A DNA stretch of 64,000 nt from Candidatus Brocadiia bacterium (GTDB taxonomy: Bacteria; Planctomycetota; Brocadiia; CAIUPP01): NCBI GenBank assembly GCA_050015075.1, contig JBEKCB010000026.1, positions 1-64,000 on the forward strand. The letters run 5' to 3'. The notes beneath the pieces were generated by a model. That model was not told the DNA's origin, did no database searches, and saw nothing but the letters and a program-made list of their open reading frames with translations. The position numbers were made by a program, and so were the translations under genes. Positions within the stretch are counted from its first letter, which is position 1. Each line of letters opens with the position of its first letter. Shown piece after piece: positions 24,702-62,013 of the stretch.

Positions 24702-24748
24702 TCCGGGATTTGCCAGATGGCCGCCGCCCACATAGCGGCTAGCCATCA
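24702..24748 (-). promoter_or_regulatory. Repeated leader module, copy E (leader part only)
   Basis: tgatggctagccgctatgtgggcggcggccatctggcaaatcccgga aligns with copies A-D. Confidence 0.65.
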
Positions 24749-24794
24749 AATCTCCGATTCCTGATCATCCCGAAGGTCGAAGGCGGCCGCTAGT

Positions 24795-24841
24795 AAAAAA
24801 CAACCGGGAAGGCTGATGGCTATTTACCGTCAGCCCTCCCG
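24795..24841 (-). terminator. Rho-independent terminator
   Basis: cgggagggctgacgg...ccatcagccttcccg followed by a T-tract on -. Confidence 0.8.
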
Positions 24842-24904
24842 ACTACGTTGCACAACGTCAGAGGCCAAAGCCGCCCCTGGTCCGCGTTCGTTCTAACCGC
24901 TCGC

Positions 24905-26341
24905 CTACTTCCAGGTCTCTTCCGCCGGCGGAGTCTTTTCCCCATTCGGCCCGGGCGGAAGATTGTCGCGGTATTTCTTCCACATCTCGTTGACGAACGG
25001 ATACCACGTCGCTCGTTGCAGCTGCCAATCTGCGGAGAAGTCCCATCCCGTCTGATCTTTGATCTGCTTGACGAATGCCGTGTCGTCCTCCGTCATCCAG
25101 CGATCCTCATAGGCAAAGAACGCGTCATGGTCCCAGTCTTTCTCAGCGTGCATAATCCTGGCCGCAAGAGCCTCGGCCACCCAGGCATTGCCGTTCAAAC
25201 GACGGTAACTCTCGTTCATCTGGCTCGCCCACTCTTTCGGCGGGAGATGCTCGTACTGGCCCCAGCCCGGATCGGTCTTATTGATATCCTCGCCGTTCCG
25301 GTCAACGCCCTGATGCCCGGCGTAGACCACCTTCGCTCCGGTCCAGGAGCGCTTGAACAGAGTCTGCATGTCCTCCCCGAACTGCACGTTGGGATAGGTC
25401 TTAGTGGGCGAGGCCATTTCGTCATCGCCCAGCATCATCCCGGCGAACACGATCGGCCATTTCCGGCCCGATCCATGCCCGCCATGCGCCTGCCAGCCGT
25501 GGAAGCCGGCTCTCACGATGCCCCAAAGGTCAATCCCGTTCTGCACAAGACCGATCAGGAGCCTCTCCTTTTTCTCCGGCGGCAAATCCGTCATCAATGC
25601 CAGGCTGGCGACTCCGGGCGCTTCGGCCATTTCCCGTCCGTACTGCGGTTGATATTCCACGGGCGCGTCGAAGGAAAAGAATACCAGGTTGAACCAGACG
25701 CGGTTGTAGTGATCCGCCAGTTCGTCTGCCGAAATCGAGACGCCTAAGTCCAGGTCGAACGTATCTCGGCCATAAGGCAGATTCGGCAGGAGATTCCGCT
25801 TGAGGTTCCTGGCCAGGTAGGTCTTCTGCGACCGATCGCAGTACGAGGGACGGAAGGCATCCGCGGGCTGGGCGGCAGCCACACAGGTGAGCACACAGGC
25901 GCTTTTCACGGGGCACGGCGTAATGACGCTCTTTCGAAGCCAGCGATGAAAGGCCTTGTTGTATTCCTCGTCGGTGACGCTGATGGTGGACATGAGCGCA
26001 TCGCCGGGCTTCATCTGGATCGGCAACGGCGTGCACATCTTGGCGTCGTAACGGTGTCCCTCCTCGCGGCTGTCATAGCCGCTGTGATTTTCATCCAGCG
26101 GCGGATTCACTTCGCATCCATTCCGGCCGTTCCCGGGCGGAGGCGTGATGGAGACGACTTCGCAATTCCCCACAACATAATAGTCGCCGTTTACGAACTG
26201 ACCGACTTCGGCCGGTTTACTTAACTTCCAAGTGATCCCGTATTGCGTGATGGTATCGGTTTTCACAGTAGGACCGCTCTCTGCGCATGCAGACAAGAGA
26301 ACGAGAATAGCCGCCATGCAAACGCTCTTGCACACGTACAT
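24905..26341 (-). CDS. Secreted or lipoprotein hypothetical protein, family X copy 2
   Basis: Lipobox-like LSAC; very similar to 26390-27832. Confidence 0.88.
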   Translation of the reverse strand: MYVCKSVCMAAILVLLSACAESGPTVKTDTITQYGITWKLSKPAEVGQFVNGDYYVVGNCEVVSITPPPGNGRNGCEVNPPLDENHSGYDSREEGHRYDAKMCTPLPIQMKPGDALMSTISVTDEEYNKAFHRWLRKSVITPCPVKSACVLTCVAAAQPADAFRPSYCDRSQKTYLARNLKRNLLPNLPYGRDTFDLDLGVSISADELADHYNRVWFNLVFFSFDAPVEYQPQYGREMAEAPGVASLALMTDLPPEKKERLLIGLVQNGIDLWGIVRAGFHGWQAHGGHGSGRKWPIVFAGMMLGDDEMASPTKTYPNVQFGEDMQTLFKRSWTGAKVVYAGHQGVDRNGEDINKTDPGWGQYEHLPPKEWASQMNESYRRLNGNAWVAEALAARIMHAEKDWDHDAFFAYEDRWMTEDDTAFVKQIKDQTGWDFSADWQLQRATWYPFVNEMWKKYRDNLPPGPNGEKTPPAEETWK

Positions 26342-26389
26342 TGTTCCCTCCCTTCCATTTTAGCTTTCGATCGCTTCCCTGACCCAAAT

Positions 26390-27832
26390 CTATTTCCAGG
26401 TCGTCTCGGCCGGCGGGGTTTTCTCACCATCCGGCCACGGGGGAATGTTGTTGCGGTATTTATGCCACATTTCCATTATGAATGGATCATATGTCTGTCT
26501 CTGCCAGCACCAGTCAGGATAGGTAAGTCCCGTCTGCGCCGTGATCGTTTTTAGAAATGCGGTATCATCTTCCGTCATCCAACGATCCACATAACTGAAA
26601 AAGGCGTCATGGTCCCAGTATTTTTCCGCATGCATAATCCGCGCCGCCAAGGCTTCGCCCACCCAGGCGAGGCTCGTGCAGGAACGGCGGTATCCTTCGT
26701 TCATGCCCGGCTCCTCCGGGTCAATCGGCCAGTCCTTGGGCTGAAGATGTTCGTATTGGCCCCAGCCCGCCTTCTTATTGACGTCATTTCCGTTTTTGTC
26801 AACGCCCATGTGCCCTGCATAAACCACCCCGGCGCCCGTCCAGCAGCGTTTGAACAAGGTCTGCATATCTTCCCCGAACTCGCATTTAGGATAGGTCTTG
26901 TTCGGCGACGCCATCTCGTCGTCGCCCAGCATGATGCCGGCGAACACGATCGGCCATTTCCGTCCCGTCCCGTGCCCTCCCCAGGCTTCCCAGCCGTGAA
27001 AATCGGCTCTCACAATGCCCCACAAATCAATGCCGTTCTGCACAAAACCGATCAGGAGCTTTTCTTTTTTCGCCGGCGGCAAATCGGTCATCAGCGCCAG
27101 GCTGGCCACAGCCGCGGCCCTGCCTAACTCTCTTCCGTACTGGGGCTGGTATTCGACCGGAGTGTCCCACGAAAAGAAAACCAGGTCCAGCCAGACGCGG
27201 TTGTAGTGCTCTGCAAGCTCTTCGACCGTCGGCGCGCCCTGTTCGATGGCGAAACTATCTTTGCCGTAGGGTAAACTCGGCAGAAGATTCCTTTTTAGAT
27301 TCCCGGCCAGATATATTTTCTGCGAGCGGTCGCAATAGGACGGACGAAAGGCATCTGCCGGTGCAGCCGAAGCCAGGCAAGTGAGCACGCAAGCGCTCTT
27401 CACCGGACAGTCTGATTTGTCGCTCCTGCGAAACCAACTGGGGATTGTCCCGAGTTCCTTATCGGTCACACTGATCGTGGATATCAGCGCATCCCCGGGT
27501 TTCATATGAATCGGCAGTTGAGCGCACATCTTGGCGTCATAGCGCTCGCCCCCTTCGCGGCTGTCATATCCGCTGTGATAGTCATTGAGCGGCGGATTCA
27601 ACTCGCTTCCATTTCGCCCGTTTCCCGGCGGCGGAGTGATCGCCACGACCTCACAATTGCCCACAACATAGTAGTCGCCGGTCACAAACTGTCCAACCTC
27701 CGCCGGCTCGCTTAATTTCCATGTGATCCCGTATTGGGTGATCGTATCGGTTTTCTCGGCTTGAACTCTCTGCGGGAATACACAAAAAAGAATGGCTATC
27801 ACGACCGGGAGAACGTTTTTGGACGGGTACAT
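26390..27832 (-). CDS. Secreted hypothetical protein, family X copy 1
   Basis: Signal peptide (VQA-E); GGHGTGRKWPIVFAG, YRRSCT and WDHDAFFSYVDRWM motifs. Confidence 0.88.
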   Translation of the reverse strand: MYPSKNVLPVVIAILFCVFPQRVQAEKTDTITQYGITWKLSEPAEVGQFVTGDYYVVGNCEVVAITPPPGNGRNGSELNPPLNDYHSGYDSREGGERYDAKMCAQLPIHMKPGDALISTISVTDKELGTIPSWFRRSDKSDCPVKSACVLTCLASAAPADAFRPSYCDRSQKIYLAGNLKRNLLPSLPYGKDSFAIEQGAPTVEELAEHYNRVWLDLVFFSWDTPVEYQPQYGRELGRAAAVASLALMTDLPPAKKEKLLIGFVQNGIDLWGIVRADFHGWEAWGGHGTGRKWPIVFAGIMLGDDEMASPNKTYPKCEFGEDMQTLFKRCWTGAGVVYAGHMGVDKNGNDVNKKAGWGQYEHLQPKDWPIDPEEPGMNEGYRRSCTSLAWVGEALAARIMHAEKYWDHDAFFSYVDRWMTEDDTAFLKTITAQTGLTYPDWCWQRQTYDPFIMEMWHKYRNNIPPWPDGEKTPPAETTWK

Positions 27833-27937
27833 GTTCGCCTCCAGCTCTTGTGTTTGGTTTGCAGCATGTTAACGCGGACAAACGCTTCCCTGAGATACTT
27901 CACGGCTTGCTCACGCTATGCGGTCCAGGACCGATGA

Positions 27938-28351
27938 TCACCCCTTCACAGCGTATACCCCTCTGCGGACACGCCTGAACCGCTTGTCCTTCGAGAGCGT
28001 CATGCTGACGATGTTCTGAAAATCTTTGGATTTGCTCTTATAACCTGCCGCCAGAACTGCCTCAGCGGCTTCGGCAATGGTCAGCTTGCCCTTGGCTTTG
28101 ATGGCTTCCGCCAATGTGCTGCTCAGGCTTCCTTCTCTCGCCGGTTTGACGGCTCTTCGCGCTGCCTTTCTCCTGGCCGCCTTCCTACGACCACGGACTG
28201 CCGCCTTCACATCGCCAAGACCTTCCAGCTCGGCAATCTGGCAATTCAGTGCATCCCGTGCAGCGAGGAGCTTCGGCAGTTTTCCTTGCCTACGACCGAT
28301 TTCCTTCTTGAGGTCGTCTACGGACACCTTCGCCAGCTTCACTTTCGCCAT
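27938..28351 (-). CDS. Small basic DNA-binding protein (coiled coil - basic linker - winged helix), copy 1
   Basis: N-terminal heptads, RRKAARRKAARR linker, C-terminal FRRVRRGVY wing. Confidence 0.8.
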   Translation of the reverse strand: MAKVKLAKVSVDDLKKEIGRRQGKLPKLLAARDALNCQIAELEGLGDVKAAVRGRRKAARRKAARRAVKPAREGSLSSTLAEAIKAKGKLTIAEAAEAVLAAGYKSKSKDFQNIVSMTLSKDKRFRRVRRGVYAVKG

Positions 28352-28554
28352 GTGCTGCCCTTTCTGTCAAACGAATTACCTCAGCCCCATGCTGATCTTC
28401 CCTCTTGCGCCGCCGTTCGCAGGACTCTACCACGAGGGGCTGACAACCGCAAGGGGGCCCAAAGCTGTAACAGGGCCGCCGGCCGCCTTGCCCATTTCGG
28501 CAATTGCGTCCCTCAACGGGAGCCTTGTTTCGGTATCTGGGCTGACCGTCTTCG

Positions 28555-29454: not shown

Positions 29455-29472
29455 TTGGCTCGACCTTCTTCT

Positions 29473-29522
29473 CAACCGGGATTTGCGATGTGGCCGCTCT
29501 CCACAGGACGGTCAGGCGTCAC
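29473..29522 (-). promoter_or_regulatory. Repeated leader module, copy D (leader part only)
   Basis: gtgacgcctgaccgtcctgtggagagcggccacatcgcaaatcccggttg, close match to copy C. Confidence 0.75.
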
Positions 29523-29526
29523 CTCC

Positions 29527-29931
29527 TCAGAGGTACACCCCTCTGCCGACCCGCTTGAATCGTTTGTCTTTCGAGAGCGTCATGCTGACAATCTTCCGCA
29601 AATTCTTGGATTTGCTCTTGTAACCAGCCGCCAGAACTGCGTCAATGGCTTCGGCAATGGTCAACTTCCCTCTGGTTTGGATGGCTTCCACCAACACGCT
29701 GCTCAGGCTGCCCTTTCTCGCCGGCTTCACGGCTCTTCGTGCTCCCTTCGGCCTGCCCGGCTTCCTGCGAGCAACGGCCACCGGCTTCACAGTGCCTAGA
29801 GCCTCCAACTCGGCAATTTGGCAATTGAGCGCGTCCCGCGCAGCGATGAGCTTCGGAAGTGCTCTCTGACGCCGAACGATCTCCCTCTTCAGCTCCTCGA
29901 CCGACACCTTCGCGAGCTTTGCTCTCGGCAT
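29527..29931 (-). CDS. Small basic DNA-binding protein, copy 2
   Basis: MPRAKLAKVSV...; highly similar to 27938-28351; last codons appear shifted by a 1-nt deletion. Confidence 0.8.
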   Translation of the reverse strand: MPRAKLAKVSVEELKREIVRRQRALPKLIAARDALNCQIAELEALGTVKPVAVARRKPGRPKGARRAVKPARKGSLSSVLVEAIQTRGKLTIAEAIDAVLAAGYKSKSKNLRKIVSMTLSKDKRFKRVGRGVYL

Positions 29932-30062
29932 AGGAGCGACCTCCAAAGGATGATAATCAGCGGCCCTCGCCCTTACTCCGGGCACTGACAGGGCACAATA
30001 GCCAGCCAAGGCAGAAAAAGCAACAACGGCGAAGCGTCGCCTCGATCCCACCGTTGTGCCGG

Positions 30063-30746
30063 TCAGTCATGTTGGATCGCTTCCCAGAGTTCCTTGTTGA
30101 AAGCTGCATGCCGCGACGGGCAGTTCTCCCTATGGCAAACCTCGCAACTTCGAAAGTCCACCTCCGTAGGGAAAAGTACGCCCGAGACTGTCTTGTTCGG
30201 GATCATCAGGAATGAGTCCGTCAGCCTGACTCCAATCGCCTGCTCAACGTTACCCAGGAGAGCAAACAGCCCTCGCTGCTGTTCAATGGGCCACACCGAT
30301 GCATCGCCGGAACCGGGCCGCATGATTGCTGTCTTGCCCAGGCGGAACCTGCGGTGCAGATGATCGCTGAGCTGGCTGTTCGCAGCACCAAGCAAGTGGG
30401 TCTTGATCAAGTCCCACCAGAACTCCTTCAGCATGTCCCCTCGCGCGGGAGACTTCTCATCCATCTCGCGTCCGCAGGTCGCAACCATGGGAAAAATGCG
30501 TTCGCTGGACGCCAGGTTCCTGCTCAAGGTTCGGCTTGTGAAAGAGATGCCCCCGATTACCACGGTGTCGCCGGCTCTGCCATCCACAAACGACACGGTG
30601 TAGGCCGCTCTGGGTTTTCCGACTTCCATTGCCGCGGCCATTAAGGCTCTCAATTCCTTCGCATCGTCGGATCCTGGTTCAACATGCGCCTGCTTCATCA
30701 ATTGGACGGCATCCAAAGAAAATGGAATCTCGTTCAGGATTTCCAT
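30063..30746 (-). CDS. Stand-alone cobalamin-dependent methionine synthase activation-domain-like protein
   Basis: VATCG, PGSGD..WPIEQQ, IGVRLTDSFLMIPNKTVSG and terminal C-x2-C-x4-C. Confidence 0.8.
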   Translation of the reverse strand: MEILNEIPFSLDAVQLMKQAHVEPGSDDAKELRALMAAAMEVGKPRAAYTVSFVDGRAGDTVVIGGISFTSRTLSRNLASSERIFPMVATCGREMDEKSPARGDMLKEFWWDLIKTHLLGAANSQLSDHLHRRFRLGKTAIMRPGSGDASVWPIEQQRGLFALLGNVEQAIGVRLTDSFLMIPNKTVSGVLFPTEVDFRSCEVCHRENCPSRHAAFNKELWEAIQHD

Positions 30747-31297
30747 CTCATCTCCCTTAGCGCAACGATAGGGATCAGCGGCTTGAGCAATCGCTAGAAG
30801 GCCCGGAACGAGGCCGCAACTTTTCCATCGTTCAGATGCCGTGCTCATGGTATAGCGCCACTGCCGCTTTGTCAATGTCCGCTCTAAGGAACGCAGCGCG
30901 ACCTATTGGAAAGGAGAACATTCTCATGGACATTCGGCCTGTTCGATGAGGAAGATACCGCCGAAGTGAAGGCGGTTGGGGAAGAACCAGACACGCAGCA
31001 GTGGAACTCACTTTGCTGGTGAGGCACGGTGAATCCGCTGTCCGCAGCGAGTGCAATGCCAGGCGGGGTCATCATCTGTACTGGTATAGTCCAATTACGC
31101 CAATCCGCCTCCTCTTCCCAAAAAGAGCGCCGCCACAAGTCGTTACCCGACTGGCAGGCCTGCCACGACTGACTTTCCGGGTAGGGGGCGGAGCGGAATG
31201 GCAGAGAGCGGAGGAGCAGCAGGCGGCGCGACGGCGCAGGGGAGAGGTTCGCCGGCGCGCGGCCTGCCCGGCCCCGACCGAACGAAGCGGGGGCTAA

Positions 31298-34200: not shown

Positions 34201-34567
34201 CGGGTTCCTTCACGCGGAGGGTACCGCGATAGGTGGCCCCGCGTTTAAAAATAAACGTCCGAATGCCGGAAGCAGAAGCGGCGTTCGCGGTGGCATTCGG
34301 GTCCCAGGGATGATGTTTCCATGGCCTGGCCGGGGCGTCGCCGGGGTTGGCATCGCTGCCGCCTTCGAAGTCAATGTAGCGAACCGGGTCGCTCTTCTGA
34401 AATACAAATGGGCGCGGCGCCCAAGTCAGGTCGCCTTTTGGATCCACGGCCGCGTAGCTGTCCTGCCAGCTCCAGTGATCCTGGTTTGCTGACGGTGAGG
34501 CTTCCGAGAATCCGCAATTGGAGATAAGGGCCAGGACCAAAAGCAGACCAAGAGACTCGCTCCTCAT
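31298..34567 (-). CDS. Large secreted right-handed beta-helix protein with C-terminal LamG-like domain
   Basis: Signal peptide; GSDANPG..PWK, DYGGIETW, parallel beta-helix-like repeats; DGKWHHV...IYLDG. Confidence 0.8.
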   Translation of the reverse strand: MRSESLGLLLVLALISNCGFSEASPSANQDHWSWQDSYAAVDPKGDLTWAPRPFVFQKSDPVRYIDFEGGSDANPGDAPARPWKHHPWDPNATANAASASGIRTFIFKRGATYRGTLRVKEPGVSGAPVRLTSDPSWGKGEAVLCGSERVLSWKRGATHPDIPEPQLVWWADLDFAPRCVWSVSQDGKILRLPLARVPKWKVSNPDDVKSEWWVWDNPGKPFGNTIKDARGTEMHLGIDTQHIKDKPASYFKGAIIWPEYGWVMSAPYPTEVEVVDLEHHGLGFGGWTGGGTGDVVMRNMRYYLEDKPQYLDDSEGEYWFEKKGAGGRLYLRPPGDADPNTMQIEAGRRMNLIDGEKVEHLEITGLTFRFTQPEWDITSAPWNFNTEPWTFRPEAFPGAVRVWGEGKDIRIANCLFEHVFFPIRIRSILAGQRVDDVRIEDNDFRFTDDGILSVSDGSAWGYAQLRGRLGDVRIYRNHSLETGRRPARYNTGTGMEVSGARTLEIAGNIIERSYGQGIDVHGSKVNGCWGDVPFTRLLIHHNKVWESMLNCNDYGGIETWQGGPFYVFDNISYNALGYQNWARYSHDSAGFGHAYYLDGAFKNYHFNNIAWGKAKDVESPVVNCSAFQEIISYQNTFFNNTVYNYYTGSRRQEPEAGRNKYLANIWCGIGQFVLRHADPAKTAAEGEAQAARPSRKRFDLASDAYGGNVFYDFAEMGVLEPSGRWLHSFDDFKATLVANDALLTDLGVVARQPPLRDPAHGDFRPAPDVTPDESRSTKHVFRFPFHGAKVFVPWSLFGVVGEWNFCRPGDDPTHLMDEHWYMADYFVSRDTYRDRPMYALKGVHITAADYTNGPLQDWTAGALNFSAARKQYAVLANAEIMKPFSFRDLKKSQHERAQPEDCTVEGAALKNPQIYTGNLLIEVHFKAAPECTGGVLIEKLQGAGYSLTLSSAGRIRFSVQGPGASAAVESRARVSDGKWHHVIAELDRAIPQLTIYLDGRKDVGARGIAASVSLANDGDLYVAGTPTGRWFDGTLDFLRLAQGTLADAQTTIEELYAWEFDGPFLRDFAGVKPTSAQRTAGAIQAPLGN

Positions 34568-34696
34568 CGGAGCGATTCTAGTTCTGGACCGCTGCCAGGC
34601 CAATCCGGAGAAACTGATAGATTGGGGAATCGCCATTTCTCCCCTTCGCCCGGTCAGTCCTGGTGTTTCACCCAGCGCGCTTCGGAGGCGTTGAAG

Positions 34697-34779
34697 TCGG
34701 AATTTCATTTATGCCCACCGTCCACATGACGTTCAGCCATCACGGGTCGCATTCTGGCTACCAGAAACCCGCTTGTCAA
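34697..34779 (-). promoter_or_regulatory. Repeated promoter/leader module, copy A
   Basis: ttgacaagcgggtttctggtagccagaatgcgacccgtgatggctgaacgtcatgtggacggtgggcat...aattccga; TTGACA-17-CAGAAT. Confidence 0.8.
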
Positions 34780-34841
34780 ACGGAAGTCGCGTGGCGAAGG
34801 GAATTTCCATGCTCTTCTTCCAGCCGTTCGGCTTGCCCCGT

Positions 34842-34911
34842 TGTAAGAATTACTCACTTTCAGCATCCGAGTAAAAGCTGACTTTCCTGTGACGCGCCCC
34901 TAATTCTTACA
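34842..34911 (+). ncRNA. Candidate structured element upstream of ThiF fragment, copy 1
   Basis: tgtaagaatt/aattcttaca outer stem, actc/gagt inner stem, conserved gctgactttcctgt; RNA versus DNA role unknown. Confidence 0.5.
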
Positions 34912-34920
34912 GGAAATAAT

Positions 34921-35082
34921 ATGGCCGAAAACACGAATCGTTTCCTCCGGCAGTTGGACATACTCCCGCCGGAGAAGATACAGTTCCCCATTGTTGTCAT
35001 CGGAGCCGGGGCCATCGGGTCGGCCACGGTCGTCACGCTGGCGAAAATGGGCTGCTCAAGCATCACTGTCTGGGACTACGAG
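34921..35082 (+). pseudogene. Truncated ThiF/E1-like adenylyltransferase (N-terminus only)
   Basis: RFLRQLDI...IVVIGAGAIGSATVVTLAKMG...VWD; family resemblance ends after ~54 aa. Confidence 0.8.
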
Positions 35083-35213
35083 AGGCGGACTCATCTCCTT
35101 CGGTCACGCCCACCTGCAAAGCGGCCGAAGAACGTGGTGCCTCCCTCAGGGTCAATCACGTCAATTGCACCCCCCGGCTTCGGTGATGAGCGAGTGAGTC
35201 ACCGATATCCGCA

Positions 35214-36575
35214 CTATGATCGCTCGAGGCAAGCACCGTTGCCGGCGATGACCTTTCGGTACCACAGCGCCGAATCTTTGAGGATGCGCTTCTGGGTCGC
35301 ATAGTCGAGGAAGATCAAACCGAACCGCTCTTTTACGCCCTCCGCCCATTCGAAATTGTCCGTGAGCGACCACTGGAAGTAGCCGCGCACGTCGACGCCA
35401 TCCGCGATAGCCCGGCGCAAACTCGACAGGTAGCGCTGGAGGAAGTCAATTCGTTGCGGGTCGTGGACCTTGCCGTCGAGCGAAACCCAGTCGGCGCCGG
35501 ACATGCCGTTCTCGGTCACGACGAGCGGCAGCTTATAGCGCTCCCAGTAAAACTTCGGTCCCCAGTAAAGAGAATCGGGGGTCACCGCCCATCGGTACGC
35601 TGTCAGGGCATGCCCCAAGGGAGGCGGGACCGTCTCGGGGCGGCCATCCTTTCCGGCGCGGACGGTCTGGCCCGAGTAGATGTTGACGCCGAAGAAGTCC
35701 AGCGGCTGGTGGATCGTCTCCATGTCGCCGGCACGGATGGGCGGCATCTCGGCTTCGAAGAGTTTCAGTCCGTCCTCAGGGTACTTTCCTTTCAGAACCG
35801 GCTCAAGCCACCAGGTGTTGGTCCAGATATCTTTGCCGACGATATGGAACATGGCTTCGTGGGCCGCGCGAATGTCTCGCATGCTTCGACTGGCGGGCAT
35901 TGAAACGACGCCGACCGGAGCATAGCCGACCCGGGGCTCTTCCTTCGAGCGTGCGCGGATGGCCTTCACCGCTTTCCCGTGCGCCAGGAGGACATTATGC
36001 GCGATTCTCAGAATTTCGGCGAAACCGAGCTTGTCTCCCGGCGCGTGAATCCCCGAAGAGTGACCAAAGCCGACGAAGCACTGCGGCTCATTCAGCGTCA
36101 TCCAGTGCTTTACACGGTCCGAGAGCCTGTCCACAACAAGAGCCGTGTATTCAGCGAACCAGTCGGAGCTTGCAGAGTTGAGCCAGCCGCCACGGCAGTA
36201 AAGGCGGTACGGGTAGTCCCAATGAAACAGAGTGACCCAGGGCTGAACCTTCGCGGCGAGAAGTCCATCCACAAGTCGGTCGTAAAAGTCGAGGCCCTTC
36301 GCGTTTACCGGCCCGACGCCCTCAGGGAGCACTCGCGTCCATGAGATGGAGAACCGATATCCCTTCAGGCCGATCTCCCTCATCAAGGAGACGTCTTCTT
36401 TCCAGCGGTGATAGTAGTCGCAGGCGACGTCGCCATTCTGGTTTTTCCACACGGTCCCTTGCTTGCGACAGAACATGTCCCAGACGGACGGTCCTTTGCC
36501 ATCCTCTCGCGCAGCGCCTTCGACCTGATATGAAGCGGAAGCGGCGCCCCAGACGAAGCTCTTTGGAAAGCGCAT
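35214..36575 (-). CDS. Beta-glucosidase, GH1
   Basis: FVWGAASASYQVEG, YRFSISWTR, TLNEP, VTENG and DNFEWAEG motifs. Confidence 0.96.
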   Translation of the reverse strand: MRFPKSFVWGAASASYQVEGAAREDGKGPSVWDMFCRKQGTVWKNQNGDVACDYYHRWKEDVSLMREIGLKGYRFSISWTRVLPEGVGPVNAKGLDFYDRLVDGLLAAKVQPWVTLFHWDYPYRLYCRGGWLNSASSDWFAEYTALVVDRLSDRVKHWMTLNEPQCFVGFGHSSGIHAPGDKLGFAEILRIAHNVLLAHGKAVKAIRARSKEEPRVGYAPVGVVSMPASRSMRDIRAAHEAMFHIVGKDIWTNTWWLEPVLKGKYPEDGLKLFEAEMPPIRAGDMETIHQPLDFFGVNIYSGQTVRAGKDGRPETVPPPLGHALTAYRWAVTPDSLYWGPKFYWERYKLPLVVTENGMSGADWVSLDGKVHDPQRIDFLQRYLSSLRRAIADGVDVRGYFQWSLTDNFEWAEGVKERFGLIFLDYATQKRILKDSALWYRKVIAGNGACLERS

Positions 36576-36660
36576 GTCGTTCTCCTTTCCTGGAAGTCGC
36601 CAATTTCGTCGGTAATCCTTACGGCTTGGCCGAGGCACAACACGGCTGCGGCCATTCTTG

Positions 36661-36743
36661 ACCGCAATGTGCCCTATGCCGTTTTCGACATGACGGTCAG
36701 CCATCAAGTGTCGCATTCTGCCTGTCAGAATCCAGCTTGTCAA
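36661..36743 (-). promoter_or_regulatory. Repeated promoter/leader module, copy B
   Basis: ttgacaagctggattctgacaggcagaatgcgacacttgatggctgaccgtcatgtcgaaaacggcat. Confidence 0.8.
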
Positions 36744-36755
36744 GGAGAGGCCGCG

Positions 36756-36827
36756 TGTAAGAATCACTCGCTTTTAAAGTCCGAGTAAGCTTGCTGACTT
36801 TCCTGTCTCCCACCCCCGGTTCTTACA
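36756..36827 (+). ncRNA. Candidate structured element upstream of ThiF fragment, copy 2
   Basis: tgtaagaatc/ggttcttaca outer stem, actcg/cgagt inner stem, gctgactttcctgt. Confidence 0.5.
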
Positions 36828-36837
36828 AGGAGATGAA

Positions 36838-37066
36838 ATGGTTGAGAACACGAACCGTTTCCTTCGGCAGATGGACATCCTGCCGCCAGAGAAACTGCAG
36901 TTCCTCATCGTAGCAAACTCGGCAGCCGGCGTTCACTGCGGCCGGCCGAGGAAGGGGGCTGAACATTGCCGAGGCTCTAAGGCTTCACGTTGAGGGGCTG
37001 AGGGCGCGCGGGATCGGGCAGAAGCTGGGTGTTTCCTACAGCACCGCTCGTCGGGCGCTGAAGGCT
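36838..37066 (+). pseudogene. ThiF N-terminal fragment fused to a frameshifted resolvase-like C-terminal HTH
   Basis: MVENTNRFLRQMDILPPEKLQF then AAGVHCGRPRKG; after a frameshift in a G-run, LNIAEALRLHVEGLRARGIGQKLGVSYSTARRALKA. Confidence 0.7.
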
Positions 37067-38687: not shown

Positions 38688-38769
38688 TCCGGTTCCCTTA
38701 ATCGGCTGTTGCCTATAGAACAGTCCGTTCCCTGGGGTGGCATTCTATCCTTACTGTGGCTCCTGTCAA
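38688..38769 (-). promoter_or_regulatory. Sigma70 promoter; probable divergent copy F of the repeated module
   Basis: TTGACA-17-TAGAAT then gccacccc...gactgttctataggcaacagc, in register with gcgaccc...gaccgtcctgtggagagcggc. Confidence 0.55.
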
Positions 38770-49270: not shown

Positions 49271-52200
49271 ATGGCGCATCTCAGTGATTCTGCGCTGATG
49301 GTTCGGCCGGAGCCAGTGCCGGCGCCCGCAAAGACGCCGCAGCCTGCCGCCTCGCCTGTCCAAGATCAGTCCGCCCTTGAAGGACTGCTCTATCCGATCG
49401 TGATCATCAAGCGGCAGGCATGCATCTGCTTCATGAACGACGCGGCCCGGCGCCTGCTCGTCGAAGGGCTCGACCGGCGGCTGGCGGCTCATATCCACGA
49501 CAATCCGGATATGGGAGCGATCACGCAGGTGCGCTTCACCCTCCAGAACGGGCACGACCTGTTCCTGGAGATTCGACTGGGGGAGATCGAATGGCGCGGC
49601 GAAAAGGCGACGCAGGTCTCGATCTCGGACGTGACGCCCTACCAGGGCATGATCCAGGGGTTGCTGAAAAAACTGGAGACGCAGAAGGAGGCGCTCGAGG
49701 AACTCACTGCTCGCCGGTCTGAGGCTGAGCAGCAACTCGGCGCGCACAGCGAGGCGCTGGCGAAGCTTCAAGCGGAACTCGAGGCCGAGTCCGCGGCCCG
49801 CACTAAAACGCAGGAAAGCGCCGGCCTGCGCGAGGAACTGGATCTCGCCACGCAGGAAAAAGCGCGGCTGCGATCGGACGTGACCGCACTCATCCGCGTG
49901 CGCGAGGAATTGAAAGAGTCCCGTCTGCGGCTGCAAAAACAGGTCGAGGAGCTTCAGGCCGCGGCGCCCCGGCCGCAGGAACAGGACACCGCCGGACACG
50001 CGGAACTCGAAGAGCGCGCAAGGTCGCTGGCCGCGGAGCTGGAGAAGACCCGCTCGGAACTCGAACTGGAAGCGCGCAAGTCGGCTGAAGCCGGCCGGAC
50101 ATGGGAAACGGAGCGCGCCGGGTTCTCATCGCAAGCCGCCGCGCTTGCCGCGTCGCTCGAACAGGCCCGCCGGCAAACCGATGAGGAAACCTCGCAGCGC
50201 CGGCAAGCGCAGGTGGATTTCGAGAAGGCCCGCGAGGCGGCCTCGGCATCCGAAGAGATCCAATCCAAGTTGCGGCAGGAACTGGAGGCGCTCCGGCGCG
50301 ACCGGGCGCAGATCAGCTCCCACGGAGAGGAGAAATCCGCGGAGGTCGCAGAACTCCTCGAAGAGAATAAGCGCCTGGCGCACGACCTTGCCGATCGCGC
50401 CGTCAGCGAAGCTGGCGCGCATGAGTCGGAAGCCGGCCGAGCCAACGAGAAGCTCGCTGCACAGGTCGAGGCGCTCCAGTCCGAACTCTCCGCCGCCGCG
50501 GCCGAGCGCGCCGGACTCGAGTCGAGCGCCGCTGCGCTTGCCGCAGCGCTCGAACAGGCCCGGCAGCAGACCGAGGCGGAAGCCTCGCGGCGTCGGCAAG
50601 CGCAGGCCGATCTCGAGAAGGGCCACGCCGCCGCGGCCACATCCGAGAAGACGCGTTCCGAGTTGGGCCAGGAATCGGAGTTGCTCTGGCGCAACCTGGA
50701 GCACCTCAGCGCCCTCGGAGAAGTGCAATCCCTGGAGGGCGTGGCACTCCTCGAAGAGAATAAACGCCTGGCGCGGGATCTGGCCGAGCATACCCCGCGC
50801 GAAAGCGTATTGGCCGCGGTGTGCGATGCGCTTCAGGAGAAGGCCGAGGCGCTCGCCCGCGAACTCGCGGCCGCACGGCAGGAAACCGAGCGCGCCGTCA
50901 GCGAAGCTCACGCGCGCGAGTTGGAGTCCGGCCAAGTCAACGAGAAGCTCGCCGCGAAGATCGAGACGCTCCAATCCGAACTCTCCGCCACCGCGACCGA
51001 CCGCGAGGAACTGCAGCGCGAGATCGTCAATCGGCTTGCCGATGACTCCTCCGTACGCGACGAGATGCAGGCGGAGGTTGCCCAACGGCAATCGCTGGAG
51101 AAAGAAATCGCAGCGTTGCGGCATGACTTGGCCGCCTCAGAGCGGGCCCGGGCCGAAGCGGCCGCGATATTCGAAACGCTGAAAGCCGAAGCCCGAAGCC
51201 ACGCCGACGTACTGGCCTGCGCTCGCGAGGAAGTGGCCGAGGCGGTCACGCTCGCCAAAGCGCAGCAGAAAAAAGCCGCCCAAGCGGAAGCGGAAGCCGC
51301 CTCGTTCGCTCGCGAACTGCAACAGGTGAAATCCGAATCGGCCAAGACCATGGAGACGTTGAAGGCCGGAAGCGAAAGCTACGCCGACGCGCTGGCCCGC
51401 GCTCGCGAGGAACTGGCCGAGGCCGCCACGCTTGCCAAAGCTCAGCAGGAAAAAGCCGCCGGCGCGGAAGCGGAAGCCGCCTCACTTGCAGACGAACTGC
51501 AAACGCTGAAATCTGAATCGGCCAAGGTGATCGAGACTCTGAAGGACGAAAGCGCAAGCCACGCCGATGCGGCAGCTCGCGCGCGGGAGGAGCTGGCCGA
51601 GGCCGCCACGCTCGCCAAAGCTCAGCAGGAAAAAGCCGCCCAAGCAGAAGCGGAGGCCGCTTCTGTCGCGCACGAACTGCAAACGCTCAAGTCCAAATCG
51701 GCCAAGACGATTGAGACGCTGAAGGCCGGAAGCGAAAGTCACGCCGACGCGCTGGCCCGCGCTCGCGAGGAACTGGCCGAAGCCGTAACGCTCGCCAAAG
51801 CTGAGCAGAAGAAAGTCGCCAAGGCGGAAGCGGAAGCCGCCTCGCTCGCTCGTGAACTGCAAACCGTGAAGTCTGAATCGGCCAAGACGATGGAGACGTT
51901 GAAGGCCGGAAGCGGAAGCCAGGCCGACGCACTGGCGCGCGCTCGCGAGGAACTGGCCGAGGCTGCCCAGTTGGCGAAAGTTCAGCAAGATCGGCTCGCT
52001 CAAGGGGAAGCGGAAGCCGCCTCACTCGCTAGCGAATTGCAAACGGTGAAGTCCGAATCGGCCAAGATGATGGAGACGTTGAAGGCCGGAAGCGGAAGCC
52101 AGGCCGACGCACTGGCGCGCGCGCGCGAGGAACTGGCCGAGGCTGCGCAACTCGCGAAAGTTCAGCAAGACCGGGTTGCCAAAGCGGAAACGGACGCCGC

Positions 52201-54109
52201 TTCTGTCGCGCACGAATTGCAAACGCTGAAGTCTAAATCGGCCAAGACGATCGAGACTCTGAAGGGCGAAAGCGAAAGCCACGCCGACGCGCTGGCCCGC
52301 GCTCGCGAGGAACTGGCCGAGTCGGTCACGCTCGCCAAAGCACAGCAGAAGAAAGCCGCCAAGGCGGAAGCGGAAGCCGCCTCACTCGCTCGCGAACTGC
52401 AAACCGTGAAGTCCGAATCGGCCAAGACGATGGAGAAGTTGAAGGCCGGAAGCGAAAGCCACGCCGACGCACTGGCTCGCGCTCGCGAGGAACTGGCCCA
52501 AGCCGAAACGCTCGCCAAAGCTCAGCAGAAGAAAGCCGCCCAAGCGGAAGCGGAAGCTGCGTCACTCACTCGCGAACTGGAAACGGTGAAGTCCGAATCG
52601 GCCAAGGCGTTGGAGACGTTGAAGGCCGGAAGCGAAAGCCACGCCGACGCGCTGGCCCGCGCTCGCGAGGAACTGGCCGAGTCGGTCACGCTTGCCAAAG
52701 CTCAGCAGAAGAAAGCCGCCAAGGCAGAAGCGGAAGCCGCGTCACTCGCTCGCGAACTGCAAACCGTGAAGTCCGAATCGGCCAAGACGATGGAGAAGTT
52801 GAAGGCCGGAAGCGAAAGCCACGCCGACGCGCTGGCTCGCGCTCGCGAGGAACTGGCCCAAGCCGAAACGCTCGCCAAATCGCAGCAGAAGAAAGCCGCC
52901 CAAGCGGAAGCGGAAGCCGCGTCGCTCGCTCGCGAACTGCAAACCGTGAAGTCCGAATCGGCCAAGACGGTGGAGACGTTGAAGGCCGGAAGCGAAAGCC
53001 ACGCCGACGCGCTGGCTCGCGCTCGCGAGGAACTGGCTTCGGCTGCCCAACTCGCAAAAGTTCAGCAAGACCGGCTCGCCAAAGTCGAAGCGAACGCCGC
53101 CTCTGTCGCGAACGAACTGCAAACAGTGAAGTCTGAATCGGCCAAGGCGATCGAGACGCTGAAGGGCGAAAGCTCGCGGCACGCCGACGCGGTAGCTCGC
53201 GCGCGTGAGGAACTGGCCCAAGTCGCCACGCTCGCCAAAGCTGAGCAGGAGAAAGCCGCCTCACTCGCTCACGAACTGCAACAGGTGAAGTCTGAATCAG
53301 CCAAGACGATCGAGACGCTGAAGGGCGAAAGCACAAGCCACGCCGACGCGGTAGCTCGCGCGCGTGAGGAACTGACCCAAGCTGTCGCGCTCGCCAAGGC
53401 TGAGCAGGAGAAAGCCGCCTCACTCGCTCACGCACTGCAACAGGTGAAGTCTGAATCAGCCAAGACGATGGAGACGCTGAAGGGCGAAAGCACAAGCCAC
53501 GCCGACGCGGTAGCTCGCGCGCGTGAGGAACTGACCCAAGCCGTCGCGCTCGCGAAAGCCCAGCAGGAAAGAACCGCCCGCGCGGAAGCGGAGGCGGCCG
53601 CAATCGCTCGCGAATTGCAAACGGTGAAGTCTGAATCGGCCAAGATGACGGAGACGTTGAAGGGCGAAACCGGCGGCCAGGCCGACGCGCTCGCCCAGGC
53701 GCGCCACGAAGCGACCGAGTCCGCCAAGTTCGCGAATGCGCAGCAGGCCAAAGCCGCAGAGGCGGAGAAACGGGCGGCTTCGGCAGCGCAGGAACTGGAA
53801 CTGGAAGTGAAAAAGTCGGCTGAAGCCCGCCGGGCATGGGAAAAGGAGCGGGCCGGGTTCGTGTCGCGCGGCGGGTTTGCCGCGGCGATCGAACAGGCCC
53901 GCCGGCAGCTCGAGAATGAAACCTCGGGGCGCAAGCAGGCGGAGGCCGATCTCGAGAAGGCCCGCGCCGACGCGACCGCGTCCGAAAAGATCCAATCCCA
54001 GATGCGCCTGGAATTGGAGGCGCTTCGGCGCGAACGGGAGCAGTCCAGCGCCCCCAGAAAAGAGGAATCCCAGCAAGTCACAGAAGTTGCTGAAAAGAAG
54101 GCGCCTTGA
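49271..54109 (+). CDS. 1612-aa coiled-coil protein with N-terminal PAS-like domain and 60-aa tandem repeats
   Basis: LEGLLYPIVII...FMNDAARRLL (PAS-like); A/E/K/L/Q/R-rich, almost Pro-free rod; no signal peptide or TM helix. Confidence 0.88.
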   Translation: MAHLSDSALMVRPEPVPAPAKTPQPAASPVQDQSALEGLLYPIVIIKRQACICFMNDAARRLLVEGLDRRLAAHIHDNPDMGAITQVRFTLQNGHDLFLEIRLGEIEWRGEKATQVSISDVTPYQGMIQGLLKKLETQKEALEELTARRSEAEQQLGAHSEALAKLQAELEAESAARTKTQESAGLREELDLATQEKARLRSDVTALIRVREELKESRLRLQKQVEELQAAAPRPQEQDTAGHAELEERARSLAAELEKTRSELELEARKSAEAGRTWETERAGFSSQAAALAASLEQARRQTDEETSQRRQAQVDFEKAREAASASEEIQSKLRQELEALRRDRAQISSHGEEKSAEVAELLEENKRLAHDLADRAVSEAGAHESEAGRANEKLAAQVEALQSELSAAAAERAGLESSAAALAAALEQARQQTEAEASRRRQAQADLEKGHAAAATSEKTRSELGQESELLWRNLEHLSALGEVQSLEGVALLEENKRLARDLAEHTPRESVLAAVCDALQEKAEALARELAAARQETERAVSEAHARELESGQVNEKLAAKIETLQSELSATATDREELQREIVNRLADDSSVRDEMQAEVAQRQSLEKEIAALRHDLAASERARAEAAAIFETLKAEARSHADVLACAREEVAEAVTLAKAQQKKAAQAEAEAASFARELQQVKSESAKTMETLKAGSESYADALARAREELAEAATLAKAQQEKAAGAEAEAASLADELQTLKSESAKVIETLKDESASHADAAARAREELAEAATLAKAQQEKAAQAEAEAASVAHELQTLKSKSAKTIETLKAGSESHADALARAREELAEAVTLAKAEQKKVAKAEAEAASLARELQTVKSESAKTMETLKAGSGSQADALARAREELAEAAQLAKVQQDRLAQGEAEAASLASELQTVKSESAKMMETLKAGSGSQADALARAREELAEAAQLAKVQQDRVAKAETDAASVAHELQTLKSKSAKTIETLKGESESHADALARAREELAESVTLAKAQQKKAAKAEAEAASLARELQTVKSESAKTMEKLKAGSESHADALARAREELAQAETLAKAQQKKAAQAEAEAASLTRELETVKSESAKALETLKAGSESHADALARAREELAESVTLAKAQQKKAAKAEAEAASLARELQTVKSESAKTMEKLKAGSESHADALARAREELAQAETLAKSQQKKAAQAEAEAASLARELQTVKSESAKTVETLKAGSESHADALARAREELASAAQLAKVQQDRLAKVEANAASVANELQTVKSESAKAIETLKGESSRHADAVARAREELAQVATLAKAEQEKAASLAHELQQVKSESAKTIETLKGESTSHADAVARAREELTQAVALAKAEQEKAASLAHALQQVKSESAKTMETLKGESTSHADAVARAREELTQAVALAKAQQERTARAEAEAAAIARELQTVKSESAKMTETLKGETGGQADALAQARHEATESAKFANAQQAKAAEAEKRAASAAQELELEVKKSAEARRAWEKERAGFVSRGGFAAAIEQARRQLENETSGRKQAEADLEKARADATASEKIQSQMRLELEALRREREQSSAPRKEESQQVTEVAEKKAP
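51181..53760 (+). repeat. ~14 tandem 180-bp coding repeats (two are 159 bp)
   Basis: Register recurs every 180 nt from 51181 to 53161, then at 53320, 53479 and 53659. Confidence 0.95.
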
Positions 54110-56179: not shown

Positions 56180-56302
56180 GACTTCTCCTCCTCTTATTCA
56201 ATGACCGCTCTTGCGGGCCTGCCGGTTGAGTTGAGGCATCGTATCAAGTCTGCAAACACCGGACAATCGCCTGTCGCTGCTCGAGGGCGACCGCGCGGCG
56301 AA

Positions 56303-56992: not shown

Positions 56993-57190
56993 CGGAGTGT
57001 CTCCCGGAATTGAATCCCTCCGCAAATCGAGGTGACCGCAGGGTGCGACAACGGACTGTAGCTTGGCGGTTTTTCGCTGTCAAGGCGGATGCGGACACTC
57101 GTTGACGATGGTGGGAGTGCGTGTTAGAGTATGCGAGCGCAGGTGGGGCGCTCCAGTCTTGCCGGGTTTGCGGAATGGAGATCTGAGCCC

Positions 57191-59370: not shown

Positions 59371-59389
59371 GGTTCAACAGGAGAACGCC

Positions 59390-60334: not shown

Positions 60335-60377
60335 TGCTTCCTTGCGGAAATAGGCGTCCTATTTCCGCAAAGAAGCA
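60335..60377. terminator. Hairpin immediately after the cyclase stop
   Basis: tgcttccttgcggaaatagg-cgt-cctatttccgcaaagaagca. Confidence 0.75.
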
Positions 60378-60427
60378 TGACCGCAATAAGTCGCGTCGTT
60401 AGACCGAGTTATACGTTCCGTTGGGCC

Positions 60428-60473
60428 GTGTTTAGTTGCGTAAATTGGTACGCCAATTTACGCAACTAAACAC
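60428..60473. repeat. Perfect AT-rich 21-bp inverted repeat
   Basis: gtgtttagttgcgtaaattgg-tacg-ccaatttacgcaactaaacac. Confidence 0.9.
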
Positions 60474-60510
60474 TAGTTCCGCGCGGAAGGCATGCGCCCC
60501 TGCGCCGCGG

Positions 60511-61908
60511 CTATTCCGGGTCCGCGACCGGCAGGTTTCGCGCGGCGTCGTCGAGCACCAGCGCCCAGTCCATCTGATCGCCGGTGTATGGCGGGACGAA
60601 GACCTGGACGCCGGTGTTGGGGTACTCGCCGATGAATTTCCAGCGGCCCGTCCGCGGGTCATACCAGTGCGCTTTGACCTTCGCGCCGGCGAGCCGGTCC
60701 ATCCGCACGGTGAAGGGATGGCCGAACGGCGTGTACGCCAGCGCGAAGGCGCCGTCCGCCGCGCGCGCGGACTGGATGTGGTCCTCGAGAATCCCCTGGC
60801 CGAAGTGGATGAGGCCCTGGTCCGGCACGAGTTGGTGCCAGGGCCGCATCTCCAGCAGGCGTCGCAGCAGGCCCATGCAGTACGAGCCTTCATAGTTGAT
60901 CGCCTCGCGCCAATTGTACGTTGCCGTCTGCTCCTTCATGAACAGCGAATAATCGGCGTAGGACAGCCTGGGGTTGCCGGCCTCGAAGAACTGCCAGATG
61001 TCCTGCGCGCCGTAGCCCAGCCCCGCCGCCCCGGCGAGCATGTTCCAGTACCCCGCCTCGCGGATCTGGTGCGCGTTGATGCGCGGCTGCTTGCTGTTCG
61101 CCGAAGGGATGTGGTTCTCATACCGGAACTCCATGTCAATCGTCGGCTTCGGCGGCTGCATCAGGTAGTCATGCGTCACGAACTCGTAGCACAGCGTGCC
61201 CCACTGCCATGAGGACTGGATCGTGTTGAAATCGAGCCAGTCCATGTTGTGAAGCCAGAAGGAAGAGGAATATCCCTGAAAACCCGCGGAAGGACCGTGA
61301 CCGTGATAGGAGACCAGTTGCCGTCCTTCGCTGCCTTCCTTCAGCCCTCGCGCCATCGCGGTCCAGACGGGGAAGTCATCCATCGGCGACCGGTCCCCGC
61401 CCAGGTACCAGATCACCGCATTGTCCTTATACCGGCTTCCCAGAAACTTTCCGAAGGCGAATGCGTTGGATTCGGTGAAGACCTGCTCGTCATACCCGAC
61501 CTTGCGCACGTGCTCGCCGACGCAGGTGACGATGCCCATCACCAGCCCGAGTTCGTTCGCGCGGTTCACGATGTAGTCAATATTCCGGAAGAAAGCCTCG
61601 TTGGGCTTGGTCGGGTCGCGGTCGAGCAGCGGATAATCCCCGTAGAGGTTCGCCGCCTTCAACCCGCGCAGGCAATACGCCTGGATCGCCGTGAAACCGC
61701 GCGCGACGCGGTTCTCAAAATAGACGTCCACCTCTTCGTGGTTCAGCCGCTTGAACAGCGTCCATGCGGTGTCGGCCAGGTAATAGAACGGCCTGCCCTC
61801 CGTGGTCATCAGATACCGATGATTGGGCGACACCTTGAATCGCAGGCTCTTCACAGAACCCGGCGACGGAAACAGCGGCTTGCTCAGCCTGACGAACGAC
61901 ATGGCCAT
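60511..61908 (-). CDS. DUF4038 (GH140/apiosidase-like) protein with collagen-binding-like C-domain
   Basis: PFYYLADTAW, RGFT.IQ, WYLGGD, YEN, WYDPRTG and DWALVL motifs. Confidence 0.85.
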   Translation of the reverse strand: MAMSFVRLSKPLFPSPGSVKSLRFKVSPNHRYLMTTEGRPFYYLADTAWTLFKRLNHEEVDVYFENRVARGFTAIQAYCLRGLKAANLYGDYPLLDRDPTKPNEAFFRNIDYIVNRANELGLVMGIVTCVGEHVRKVGYDEQVFTESNAFAFGKFLGSRYKDNAVIWYLGGDRSPMDDFPVWTAMARGLKEGSEGRQLVSYHGHGPSAGFQGYSSSFWLHNMDWLDFNTIQSSWQWGTLCYEFVTHDYLMQPPKPTIDMEFRYENHIPSANSKQPRINAHQIREAGYWNMLAGAAGLGYGAQDIWQFFEAGNPRLSYADYSLFMKEQTATYNWREAINYEGSYCMGLLRRLLEMRPWHQLVPDQGLIHFGQGILEDHIQSARAADGAFALAYTPFGHPFTVRMDRLAGAKVKAHWYDPRTGRWKFIGEYPNTGVQVFVPPYTGDQMDWALVLDDAARNLPVADPE

Positions 61909-61927
61909 GAGAGACTCCTGCCTGACC

Positions 61928-62013
61928 CAACCGGAATTTCCCGGATGGCCGCTCTCCACAGGGCGGTCAGCCTTCACATGTCGCAGTCTGACCATCCGAA
62001 TCCAGCCTGTCAA
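61928..62013 (-). promoter_or_regulatory. Repeated promoter/leader module, copy C
   Basis: ttgacaggctggattcggatggtcagactgcgacatgtgaaggctgaccgccctgtggagagcggccatccgggaaattccggttg. Confidence 0.8.

Follow-up and report, generated by a model that had tools for sequence, protein, structure and literature searches.

In the integron platform, a promoter region with Pc and attI is followed by exchangeable, unrelated genes, and a single promoter serves the whole array. Small repeats of the Correia, ERIC and REPIN types have terminal inverted repeats or palindromes, often target duplications, and many dispersed copies, and in the 5′ untranslated region (UTR) of Escherichia coli ompA, a 5′-terminal stem-loop stabilises the mRNA. 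Correia, ERIC and REPIN have also been named as small repeat elements with promoters (PMC3575422), alongside a class termed "putative mobile promoters" (PMPs), i.e., similar upstream non-coding sequences that stand before unrelated genes and spread in a manner not yet known (Nijveen, Matus-Garcia and van Passel 2012, PMC3575422). PMPs have no known element or RNA family attached, and some of their families cross species; the screen that found them covered positions −150 to −50 from the start codon, required an identity of no less than 80% across 50 nucleotides (nt) or more, and returned mostly pairs at ~92% identity (PMC3575422). Our full-text literature search, outside which most subscription journals lie, found no promoter-propagation family in Planctomycetota. 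Here, we describe a family of promoter-leader units in a 64,000-nt stretch of DNA from a Candidatus Brocadiia bacterium of that phylum (GenBank assembly GCA_050015075.1, contig JBEKCB010000026.1, positions 1 to 64,000 of the forward strand; hereafter "the window"). With a probability of about 0.55, we read these paralogous units of ~100 nt as a putative mobile promoter, which spread by segmental copying and recombination within an accessory, glycan-related region.

The window holds five homologous copies of the unit (A to E), all on the − strand and all between 24.7 and 62.0 kb. Three are full units (A, 34697-34799; B, 36661-36757; C, 61929-62033), E (24702-24793) has the full length with a decayed promoter, and D (29474-29524) consists of the leader alone. 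We combined these with a sixth unit, found on contig L003 of a second species (see below), and searched for each unit with a profile (nhmmer) built from the other five. All six were recovered, with E values ranging from 5.8e-23 for C, through 2.2e-18 for A, 5.9e-18 for B and 4e-10 for E, to 3.6e-9 for D, which aligned at leader positions only (model positions 64-115). Because every left-out unit was recovered, the similarity must extend far past the two promoter hexamers. An unguided repeat search of the window returned two families, D16 (34721-34793, 36685-36757 and 61955-62027) and D17 (24700-24749, 29473-29522, 34694-34743 and 61928-61977), and a blastn comparison of the window with itself aligned A with B (84.7% identity over 59 nt, E 5e-11), A with C (73%, 101 nt, E 2e-8), B with C (76%, 85 nt, E 2e-9), C with D (82%, 50 nt, E 4e-6), and C with E (74%, 68 nt, E 0.007). 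A 22-nt core pattern matched four times in the window (A, B, C and D) versus 0.05 expected matches, a number that none of 100 shuffles reached. Neither the nhmmer profiles nor local alignment found further copies in the window, and the profiles found none in its core-gene part (1-21 kb).

These results bear on a preliminary description of this DNA, which had named a loss of significance beyond the −35 and −10 boxes as one outcome that would speak against a reused module. The similarity is significant beyond those boxes, at leave-one-out E values of 4e-9 or better, and the claim that spacer and leader take part in it is borne out by homology over ~100 nt. The consensus given there, TTGACA-17-CAGAAT followed by the leader, was accurate, and the copies are co-oriented inside the accessory region as had been stated, all five on the − strand at 24.7-62.0 kb. 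Six copies had been listed, of which A to E hold up in the profile search, and the remaining one, site F, is a hexamer match alone. D and E had both been called leader-only; this is right for D, while E aligns from about −60 and carries a decayed −35 box.

Upon aligning the copies, we obtained a full unit of ~100 nt that runs from about −60 to about +57 of the predicted transcript. Read along the − strand, it starts with CTTCGCC ~60 nt before the predicted start, continues with TTGACA and CAGAAT, which are separated by a 17-nt spacer in which some bases are conserved, and after a further 10 nt reaches (G/T)TG-ATG, a strongly conserved block GGCTGACCGTCATGTGGA, and an end at AAATTCCGGTT ~57 nt into the transcript. 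The 3′ limit is identical in all six copies, and both limits are common to A, C and the L003 copy; B begins a few bases later. In unit A, which starts at CTTCGCC, the −35 TTGACA (34779-34774), the 17-nt spacer, the −10 CAGAAT (34756-34751) and GTG-ATG (34743-34738) lead into a leader that terminates in AAATTCCGA. Unit B has TTGACA at 36743-36738, CAGAAT at 36720-36715, TTG-ATG at 36707-36702, and a 1-nt deletion in its leader, and unit C has TTGACA at 62013-62008, CAGACT at 61990-61985, and GTG-AAG at 61977-61972. The −35 box is the same TTGACA in A, B, C and L003, and 10 of the 12 hexamer positions in A and B match the consensus; a 16-kb scan gave 11 promoter-like sites, compared with 3.7 ± 1.9 in shuffled sequence. 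Unit E reads TTCGAC in place of TTGACA, with a spacer short by ~5 nt, and lies directly behind a terminator-like hairpin (stem 24815-24801, then a T run). Unit D is the transcribed part only, and it begins 2 nt past the stop codon (29529-29527) of a gene for a small winged-helix protein. Each unit would comprise a sigma-70-type promoter (TTGACA, 17 nt, CAGAAT) and the first ~55 nt of a transcript that is predicted to start a few bases before (G/T)TG-ATG, and the units with intact hexamers most likely supply the transcription start of their cargo genes.

A different gene lies behind each copy, as the preliminary description had said. On the − strand, unit A precedes a LamG-domain protein of 1112 amino acids (aa) (Laminin_G_3; ATG 34636, stop 31298), unit B a GH1 gene (Glyco_hydro_1, E 5e-145; ATG 36575 behind GGAAAGGAG, stop 35214), and unit C an apiosidase-like gene (PF13204; ATG 61908, stop 60511). 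Unit D is followed after 19 nt by an MBL-fold gene (ATG 29454, stop 28555), and unit E after ~188 nt by the third paralog of an unnamed secreted family, whose likely start at ~24514 is the one at which its signal peptide aligns with those of the two other paralogs. The 3′ ends of the units thus lie 19-188 nt before the likely start codons, and the true starts have ribosome-binding sites of their own. By Pfam, these cargo genes fall into separate families or into no family, and they are not paralogous; past the 3′ end of the unit, we found no DNA similarity in the self-comparison of the window or in a comparison of the gene-end regions.

Two of the neighbouring gene families are themselves duplicated. 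The unnamed secreted or lipoprotein family behind unit E forms three tandem paralogs (22805-24514, 24905-26341 and 26390-27832, − strand), with 42-43% identity to the first; it matched nothing in Pfam or NCBIfam, and its neighbours in the Atlas are unnamed clusters of Bacteroidota and Planctomycetota. Two small proteins that are 73% identical (29527-29931 and 27938-28351, − strand), one of them encoded directly before leader D, each begin with a long helix, which a basic linker joins to a C-terminal winged helix in the AlphaFold 2 (AF2) models, at a mean predicted local distance difference test (pLDDT) score of 77. Their best fold matches, all at E ~0.1, are RNA polymerase delta, forkhead domains and the DNA-binding domain of Rok, and they may be nucleoid-associated or regulatory proteins.

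Units A and B retain a trace of how at least one copy arose. Beyond the unit, they share 156 nt of upstream sequence at 77.6% identity (34842-34994 versus 36756-36911, self-blastn). On the A side, this extra segment (34842-35088, + strand) consists of intergenic DNA between divergent genes, followed by the 5′ stub of a ThiF/E1-like gene (ThiF, E 2e-6); the stub retains 56 codons (34921-35088, + strand) and breaks off at the 3′ end of the GH1 gene. On the B side, self-blastn aligned the matching intergenic region and ~24 stub codons from an ATG at 36838 (36756-36911, + strand), past which the stub has decayed. The stub reading frame begins MAENTNRFLRQLDILPPEK..., resembling the start of ThiF/E1-like adenylyltransferase domains, and a promoter-like site on the + strand (TTGTCA-16-AAGAAT, 36737-36764) stands back to back with the −35 box of unit B. 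Since the stubs at A and B come from one gene, at least one copying event must have taken in more than the unit. The identity between A and B is 77% in the promoter, 72% in the transcribed part, 81% in the stub and 76% in the intergenic region; in this pair, the unit is kept no better than the stub, and hence copying followed by drift suffices to account for A and B. An inverted repeat, TGTAAGAAT...ATTCTTACA, flanks the intergenic region that A and B have in common. The best named match of the stub is the E1 domain of the anti-phage 6A-MBL cap2_3 model (E 8e-7, far below the cut-off of that model), and Padloc, applied to this stub and to the MBL gene, gave only generic E1 and MBL matches and assembled no defence system.

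We also scanned 185,579 species genomes, among which the source genome is not included, with the core pattern. Twelve contigs were hit, with one match each, a number that by our estimate is about the chance expectation for the information content of the pattern. Eleven of these matches fit the profile over the pattern itself only, and one fits the whole unit including the promoter, at E 2e-20. One whole-unit match in a collection of this size indicates a family that is rare and clustered, unlike a common regulon motif. This match lies on L003, a contig of a metagenome-assembled genome labelled Candidatus Brocadiia, phylum Planctomycetota, of which we examined 8 kb of 113.6 kb. There, the unit precedes a gene for a 318-aa secreted repeat protein and adjoins a divergent PQQ_2 beta-propeller gene, both unlike the genes of the window. 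On this strand, 2.4 kb upstream of the unit, there is a partial copy that comprises the leader's 3′ half (p 0.001-0.008 against three of four units). The leader of the L003 unit is 73-80% identical to the window copies, which are 61-77% identical among themselves. If its end is set 2 nt earlier, at GGTT, the unit is flanked on both sides by GGCCTT (6521-6526 and 6633-6638). No ThiF-like sequence was found beside the L003 unit, and the unit matched nothing in plasmid and phage collections. At 4 kb from the L003 unit, we observed an open reading frame (ORF) that resembles a terminase large subunit (884-2560 of the L003 stretch, − strand).

Two proteins of the window have protein language-model neighbours that come mostly from Planctomycetota, which gives a lead on the source organism. 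The first 13 kb of the window carry core genes (EPSP synthase, PrmC, RF-1, CoaX, Obg, GatB and an aconitase-family protein) and are free of units. An intact tRNA-Glu(CTC) gene lies at 21351-21426 (+ strand), and 40.7 kb from it, ~40 nt upstream of unit C, a 48-nt copy of the tRNA-Glu 3′ part (62075-62122, + strand) is 83% identical to 21382-21429. A tRNA gene with a partial copy is the usual signature of an old integration, and the two, which enclose all five units, resemble the edges of an island that integrated long ago. A Pfam scan of 45 ORFs in the window found neither an integrase or transposase family nor any other recombinase family. Glycan-related genes abound in the region by Pfam assignment (BNR, GH1, GH28-like, GH10, GH88-like and apiosidase-like). 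Elsewhere in the window, a Type IIG restriction-modification gene (Eco57I/MmeI-like, 3905-6754, − strand) with a GC content of 0.54 stands between core genes of GC 0.66 and is probably a separate small insertion. A 1612-aa ORF (49271-54109, + strand) contains ~15 tandem repeats of 180 nt (60 aa) and has a strong AT skew and a coiled-coil-like composition. Long palindromes occur at 60335-60377, 60428-60473 and 62973-63035 (84-91% self-complementary) and at 11398-11570 (180 nt at 68%), of which those at 60335-60377 and 60428-60473, between convergent genes, look like two-way terminators.

A number of further candidates were rejected. Site F (38688-38769) gave no nhmmer match at E up to 10 and was absent from the 40 best matches of the leader-profile search at E up to 200, and its local alignment to the four full units matched the hexamer regions alone (p 0.04-0.25); it is a near-consensus promoter-like site (TTGACA-16-TAGAAT, 38742-38769, − strand, found by the promoter scan) before a GH28-like gene. 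Possible decayed copies behind the paralogous small gene (27880-27945; p 0.52-0.92 against four units) and before the small gene (30020-30075; p 0.03-0.42) were not significant and had no nhmmer match. A weak nhmmer match at 17295-17333 falls inside a duplicated coding segment that is unrelated to the unit; this segment is a direct repeat of 105 nt at 87% identity (14356-14460 and 17313-17417, + strand), in which the 3′ end of the ORF at 13451-14458 recurs within the ORF at 17063-17755, neither of which has a Pfam match. Just upstream of unit A, the 12 nt at 34800-34811 (− strand), CATGGAAATTCC, equal the 3′ end of the unit as it stands in L003 and may be the trace of a head-to-tail junction, or chance. 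A whole second unit in tandem at this place was not supported, as the last 12 nt alone match (p 0.001 with L003, 0.03 with C, 0.085 with A and 0.72 with B). The near-palindrome GGAAATTCC, which occurs at the 3′ end of the unit and again just upstream of unit A, was considered as a recombination site and set aside; with one mismatch allowed, it is found 24 times in the window versus 17.4 ± 4.3 expected and is not enriched.

The leader was analysed both as a structured RNA and as a small reading frame. RNAalifold, run on the six leaders, gave a consensus of −3.7 kcal/mol with a hairpin of five pairs, AUGGC/GUCAU, that starts from the ATG and shows no compensatory pairs; all five pairs form in four of the six copies, with one mismatch each in C and D. 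The folds of the single sequences differ from one another, with z-scores from +1.35 to −2.18. A longer hairpin drawn by hand has 85% of its cells paired, compared with 25-53% when the partner strand is slid; none of its eight pairs changed on both sides among the six sequences, and 430 of 500 shuffles do equally well. Rfam returned only a tRNA over the whole window at the gathering score, and three weak, chance-level matches over 34500-37000 at E up to 10. As to coding, (G/T)TG is present in all six copies and ATG in four of the six, in a constant position 10 nt beyond the −10 box. The ratio of nonsynonymous to synonymous change (pN/pS) in the peptide frame is 0.84, versus 0.88 and 0.86 in the other frames (five sequences, with the frameshifted B left out), and over the first 26 columns of all six sequences it is 0.88 versus 1.01 and 0.82. 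The minimum numbers of changes at the three codon positions are 5, 7 and 8. After the first NTG, the ORF runs for 12 residues in A, 16 in D, 25 in L003 and ~122 in E; it reads through into the cargo frame in B and C only, which is no more than chance, and the position of the stop varies among the copies. The preliminary description had seen a decayed peptide in the leader, a view that finds a start codon in six of six copies but no support in a pN/pS of 0.84 versus 0.86-0.88 or in a stop that is not conserved. Most economically, we read the unit as a promoter whose initial transcribed region is conserved, and the conserved block from +1 to +25 could reflect a shared role, such as an mRNA-protecting 5′ hairpin or the binding site of a regulator.

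The reading as a putative mobile promoter builds on the homology of the units, their common 5′ and 3′ limits, the unrelated cargo, the stub that was copied along at A and B, and the copy in a second species; the units would have spread by copying of DNA segments and recombination, without machinery of their own. Several observations weigh against it. The −10 box of unit C is weak (CAGACT, missed by the promoter scan), the −35 box and spacer of E are broken, and D has no promoter part, while promoter activity and start site are predicted from consensus matches. Random segmental duplication does not explain why the 3′ limit is common to six of six copies and the 5′ limit to A, C and L003, and the GGCCTT flanks in L003 together with the 12-nt repeat upstream of A are hints that insertion was more specific in its mechanism. 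What speaks most against simple drift is the closeness of the L003 leader to those of the window, which suggests selection or transfer. In addition, the copy counts cover the window and the genome collection described above, so that copies at core genes elsewhere in the source genome are possible. Such copies would be expected if the unit were a lineage-specific cis-regulatory module that is kept genome-wide for the co-regulation of glycan genes, with its leader acting as a regulatory RNA or as an operator at +1 to +25, an explanation that we consider possible though unlikely. It would account for a full copy in a second species that is as similar as the window copies are to each other, for promoterless leader copies (D and the partial copy in L003), for the several glycan-related cargo genes (GH1, apiosidase-like, LamG), and for a hairpin with which the sequences are compatible, at 85% of cells paired. 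The same hairpin shows no covariation (0 of 8 pairs, with shuffles its equal), however, the RNAalifold consensus is weak, the single-sequence folds differ and no Rfam family of note matched, and the ~100 nt of similarity, spacer included, exceeds what an operator needs. Among 185,579 species genomes, only one has a true match to a pattern that matches four of the five window copies, the core-gene part of the window is free of copies, and the MBL-fold and unnamed-family cargo have no shown link to glycans. Smaller still is the chance that we are dealing with a tiny gene, or with what is left at the 5′ end of a lost one, in which a mostly decayed ORF of ~17 codons (M-A-D-R-H-V-E-x-G-H-x-x-N-S/P-G) with its start codon nearly at the 5′ end of the transcript and its stop at the 3′ limit would encode a leader peptide or small protein. 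Besides the start codons in one place, this would explain why D and the partial copy in L003 have a TGA exactly at the 3′ limit, where C and the L003 unit have TGG, and why the codons for R, V and two G residues vary at synonymous sites only; the pN/pS values, the spread of changes over codon positions, the unequal ORF lengths (with read-through in B and C) and the frameshift in B all speak against it, and it is very improbable in our view.

The common 3′ limit can also be taken as the edge of something larger. If the units were relic ends of a bigger mobile element with an outward promoter and the ThiF/E1-like gene as its last gene, the 3′ limit would be the end of the element, and the cargo genes would be mere neighbours of old insertion sites. 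The 5′ extent of the homology, which varies from none in D, through about −60 in C and codon 24 in B, to codon 56 in A, agrees with this picture, as do the GGCCTT on both sides of the L003 unit, the tRNA gene and its partial copy that bracket the region, and the terminase-like ORF 4 kb from the L003 copy. However, it demands five separate insertions, each followed by near-total deletion of the element. Moreover, the ends of the four full units are not inverted repeats of each other (first 30 nt versus the reverse complement of the last 30, p 0.18-0.99), the longest word shared by their flanks is 2-4 nt, with no target duplication, a scan of 45 ORFs from the window and 7 from L003 gave no transposase or integrase family, the L003 unit has no adjacent ThiF-like sequence, and phage and plasmid collections hold no match; we judge it quite improbable. 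The preliminary description had proposed a gene-capture slot of a mobile element family that gives a cassette-like array without an integron, or else a mobile promoter. Read as integron-like, such a slot would have a site at the 3′ end of the unit that takes up cassettes through a site-specific recombinase. The common 3′ limit, the tandem modules A and B with their different cargo, and the recurrence of GGAAATTCC upstream of A could be claimed for such a slot. In an integron-like slot, however, the cargo genes would not each have a promoter copy of their own, and we found no recombinase family in the 45 scanned ORFs, no inverted ends or duplications, and no shared attC-like element in eight gene-end regions behind the cargo (longest matches at most 12 nt, E at least 0.12); we judge such a slot extremely improbable. 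The other half of the earlier proposal, a mobile promoter, fits the published PMPs (PMC3575422). A bolder version of the mobile promoter, which we regard as unlikely, is a portable expression module of a narrow Planctomycetota lineage, whose defined ends (CTTCGCC to AATTCCGGTT) would result from a so far undescribed insertion mechanism, whose leader would exert a new kind of post-initiation control, as an RNA element or as a short ORF that is translated from close to the 5′ end, and which would move between genomes and wire newly acquired glycan genes into one regulatory circuit. In that case, the unit might be read by the two winged-helix proteins whose genes lie beside D and E.

Promoter reuse is regarded as a fast route to rewire or switch on acquired genes, and few families have been described in detail. 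The present case is unusually readable, with five copies within 38 kb, common limits, a stub that records segmental copying and a relative in a second species, and it provides a small, testable expression module of ~100 nt for a phylum with few genetic tools, and a test bed for the question whether a conserved transcript start has a function. Its significance would grow should a specific mechanism lie behind its defined ends or its conserved leader.

Compared with the described systems, the unit is not an integron-like system, a miniature inverted-repeat transposable element (MITE) or a known RNA family. With the integron it shares a promoter region followed by unrelated genes, but no integrase or attC-like site was found here, and each gene has a promoter copy of its own. 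Like Correia, ERIC and REPIN, it is short repeated intergenic DNA that is able to bring a promoter to a neighbouring gene; unlike them, it lacks inverted ends and duplications, and its five copies in the window are clustered. As in the ompA 5′ UTR, a short hairpin is possible within a few bases of the 5′ end, although in our unit that end is a predicted start site and the hairpin shows no covariation. A regulon operator is a short conserved dyad that recurs across a genome in otherwise unrelated promoters, whereas the similarity of the units spans ~100 nt with common limits. The closest likeness is to the PMPs, in that a unit stands before unrelated cargo, has no mobile element or RNA family attached, and recurs in a second species. 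At the PMP threshold of 80% identity over 50 nt, A-B (84.7%, 59 nt) and C-D (82%, 50 nt) would be retained, with the other pairs at 73-76%; the five cargo genes are non-paralogous neighbours as in that screen, and the units, with their 3′ ends 19-188 nt before the likely starts, overlap its −150 to −50 range only partially. What sets the present family apart from the mostly paired PMPs is that it has five copies at 61-85% identity, located 19-188 nt from the starts, and that the repeated unit includes the −10 box and ~55 nt of transcript. Promoter reuse as such has been described before, and this family is a real and well-delimited further case of it, in which, moreover, the divergent stub copied together with two of the units reveals the origin of at least one copy.

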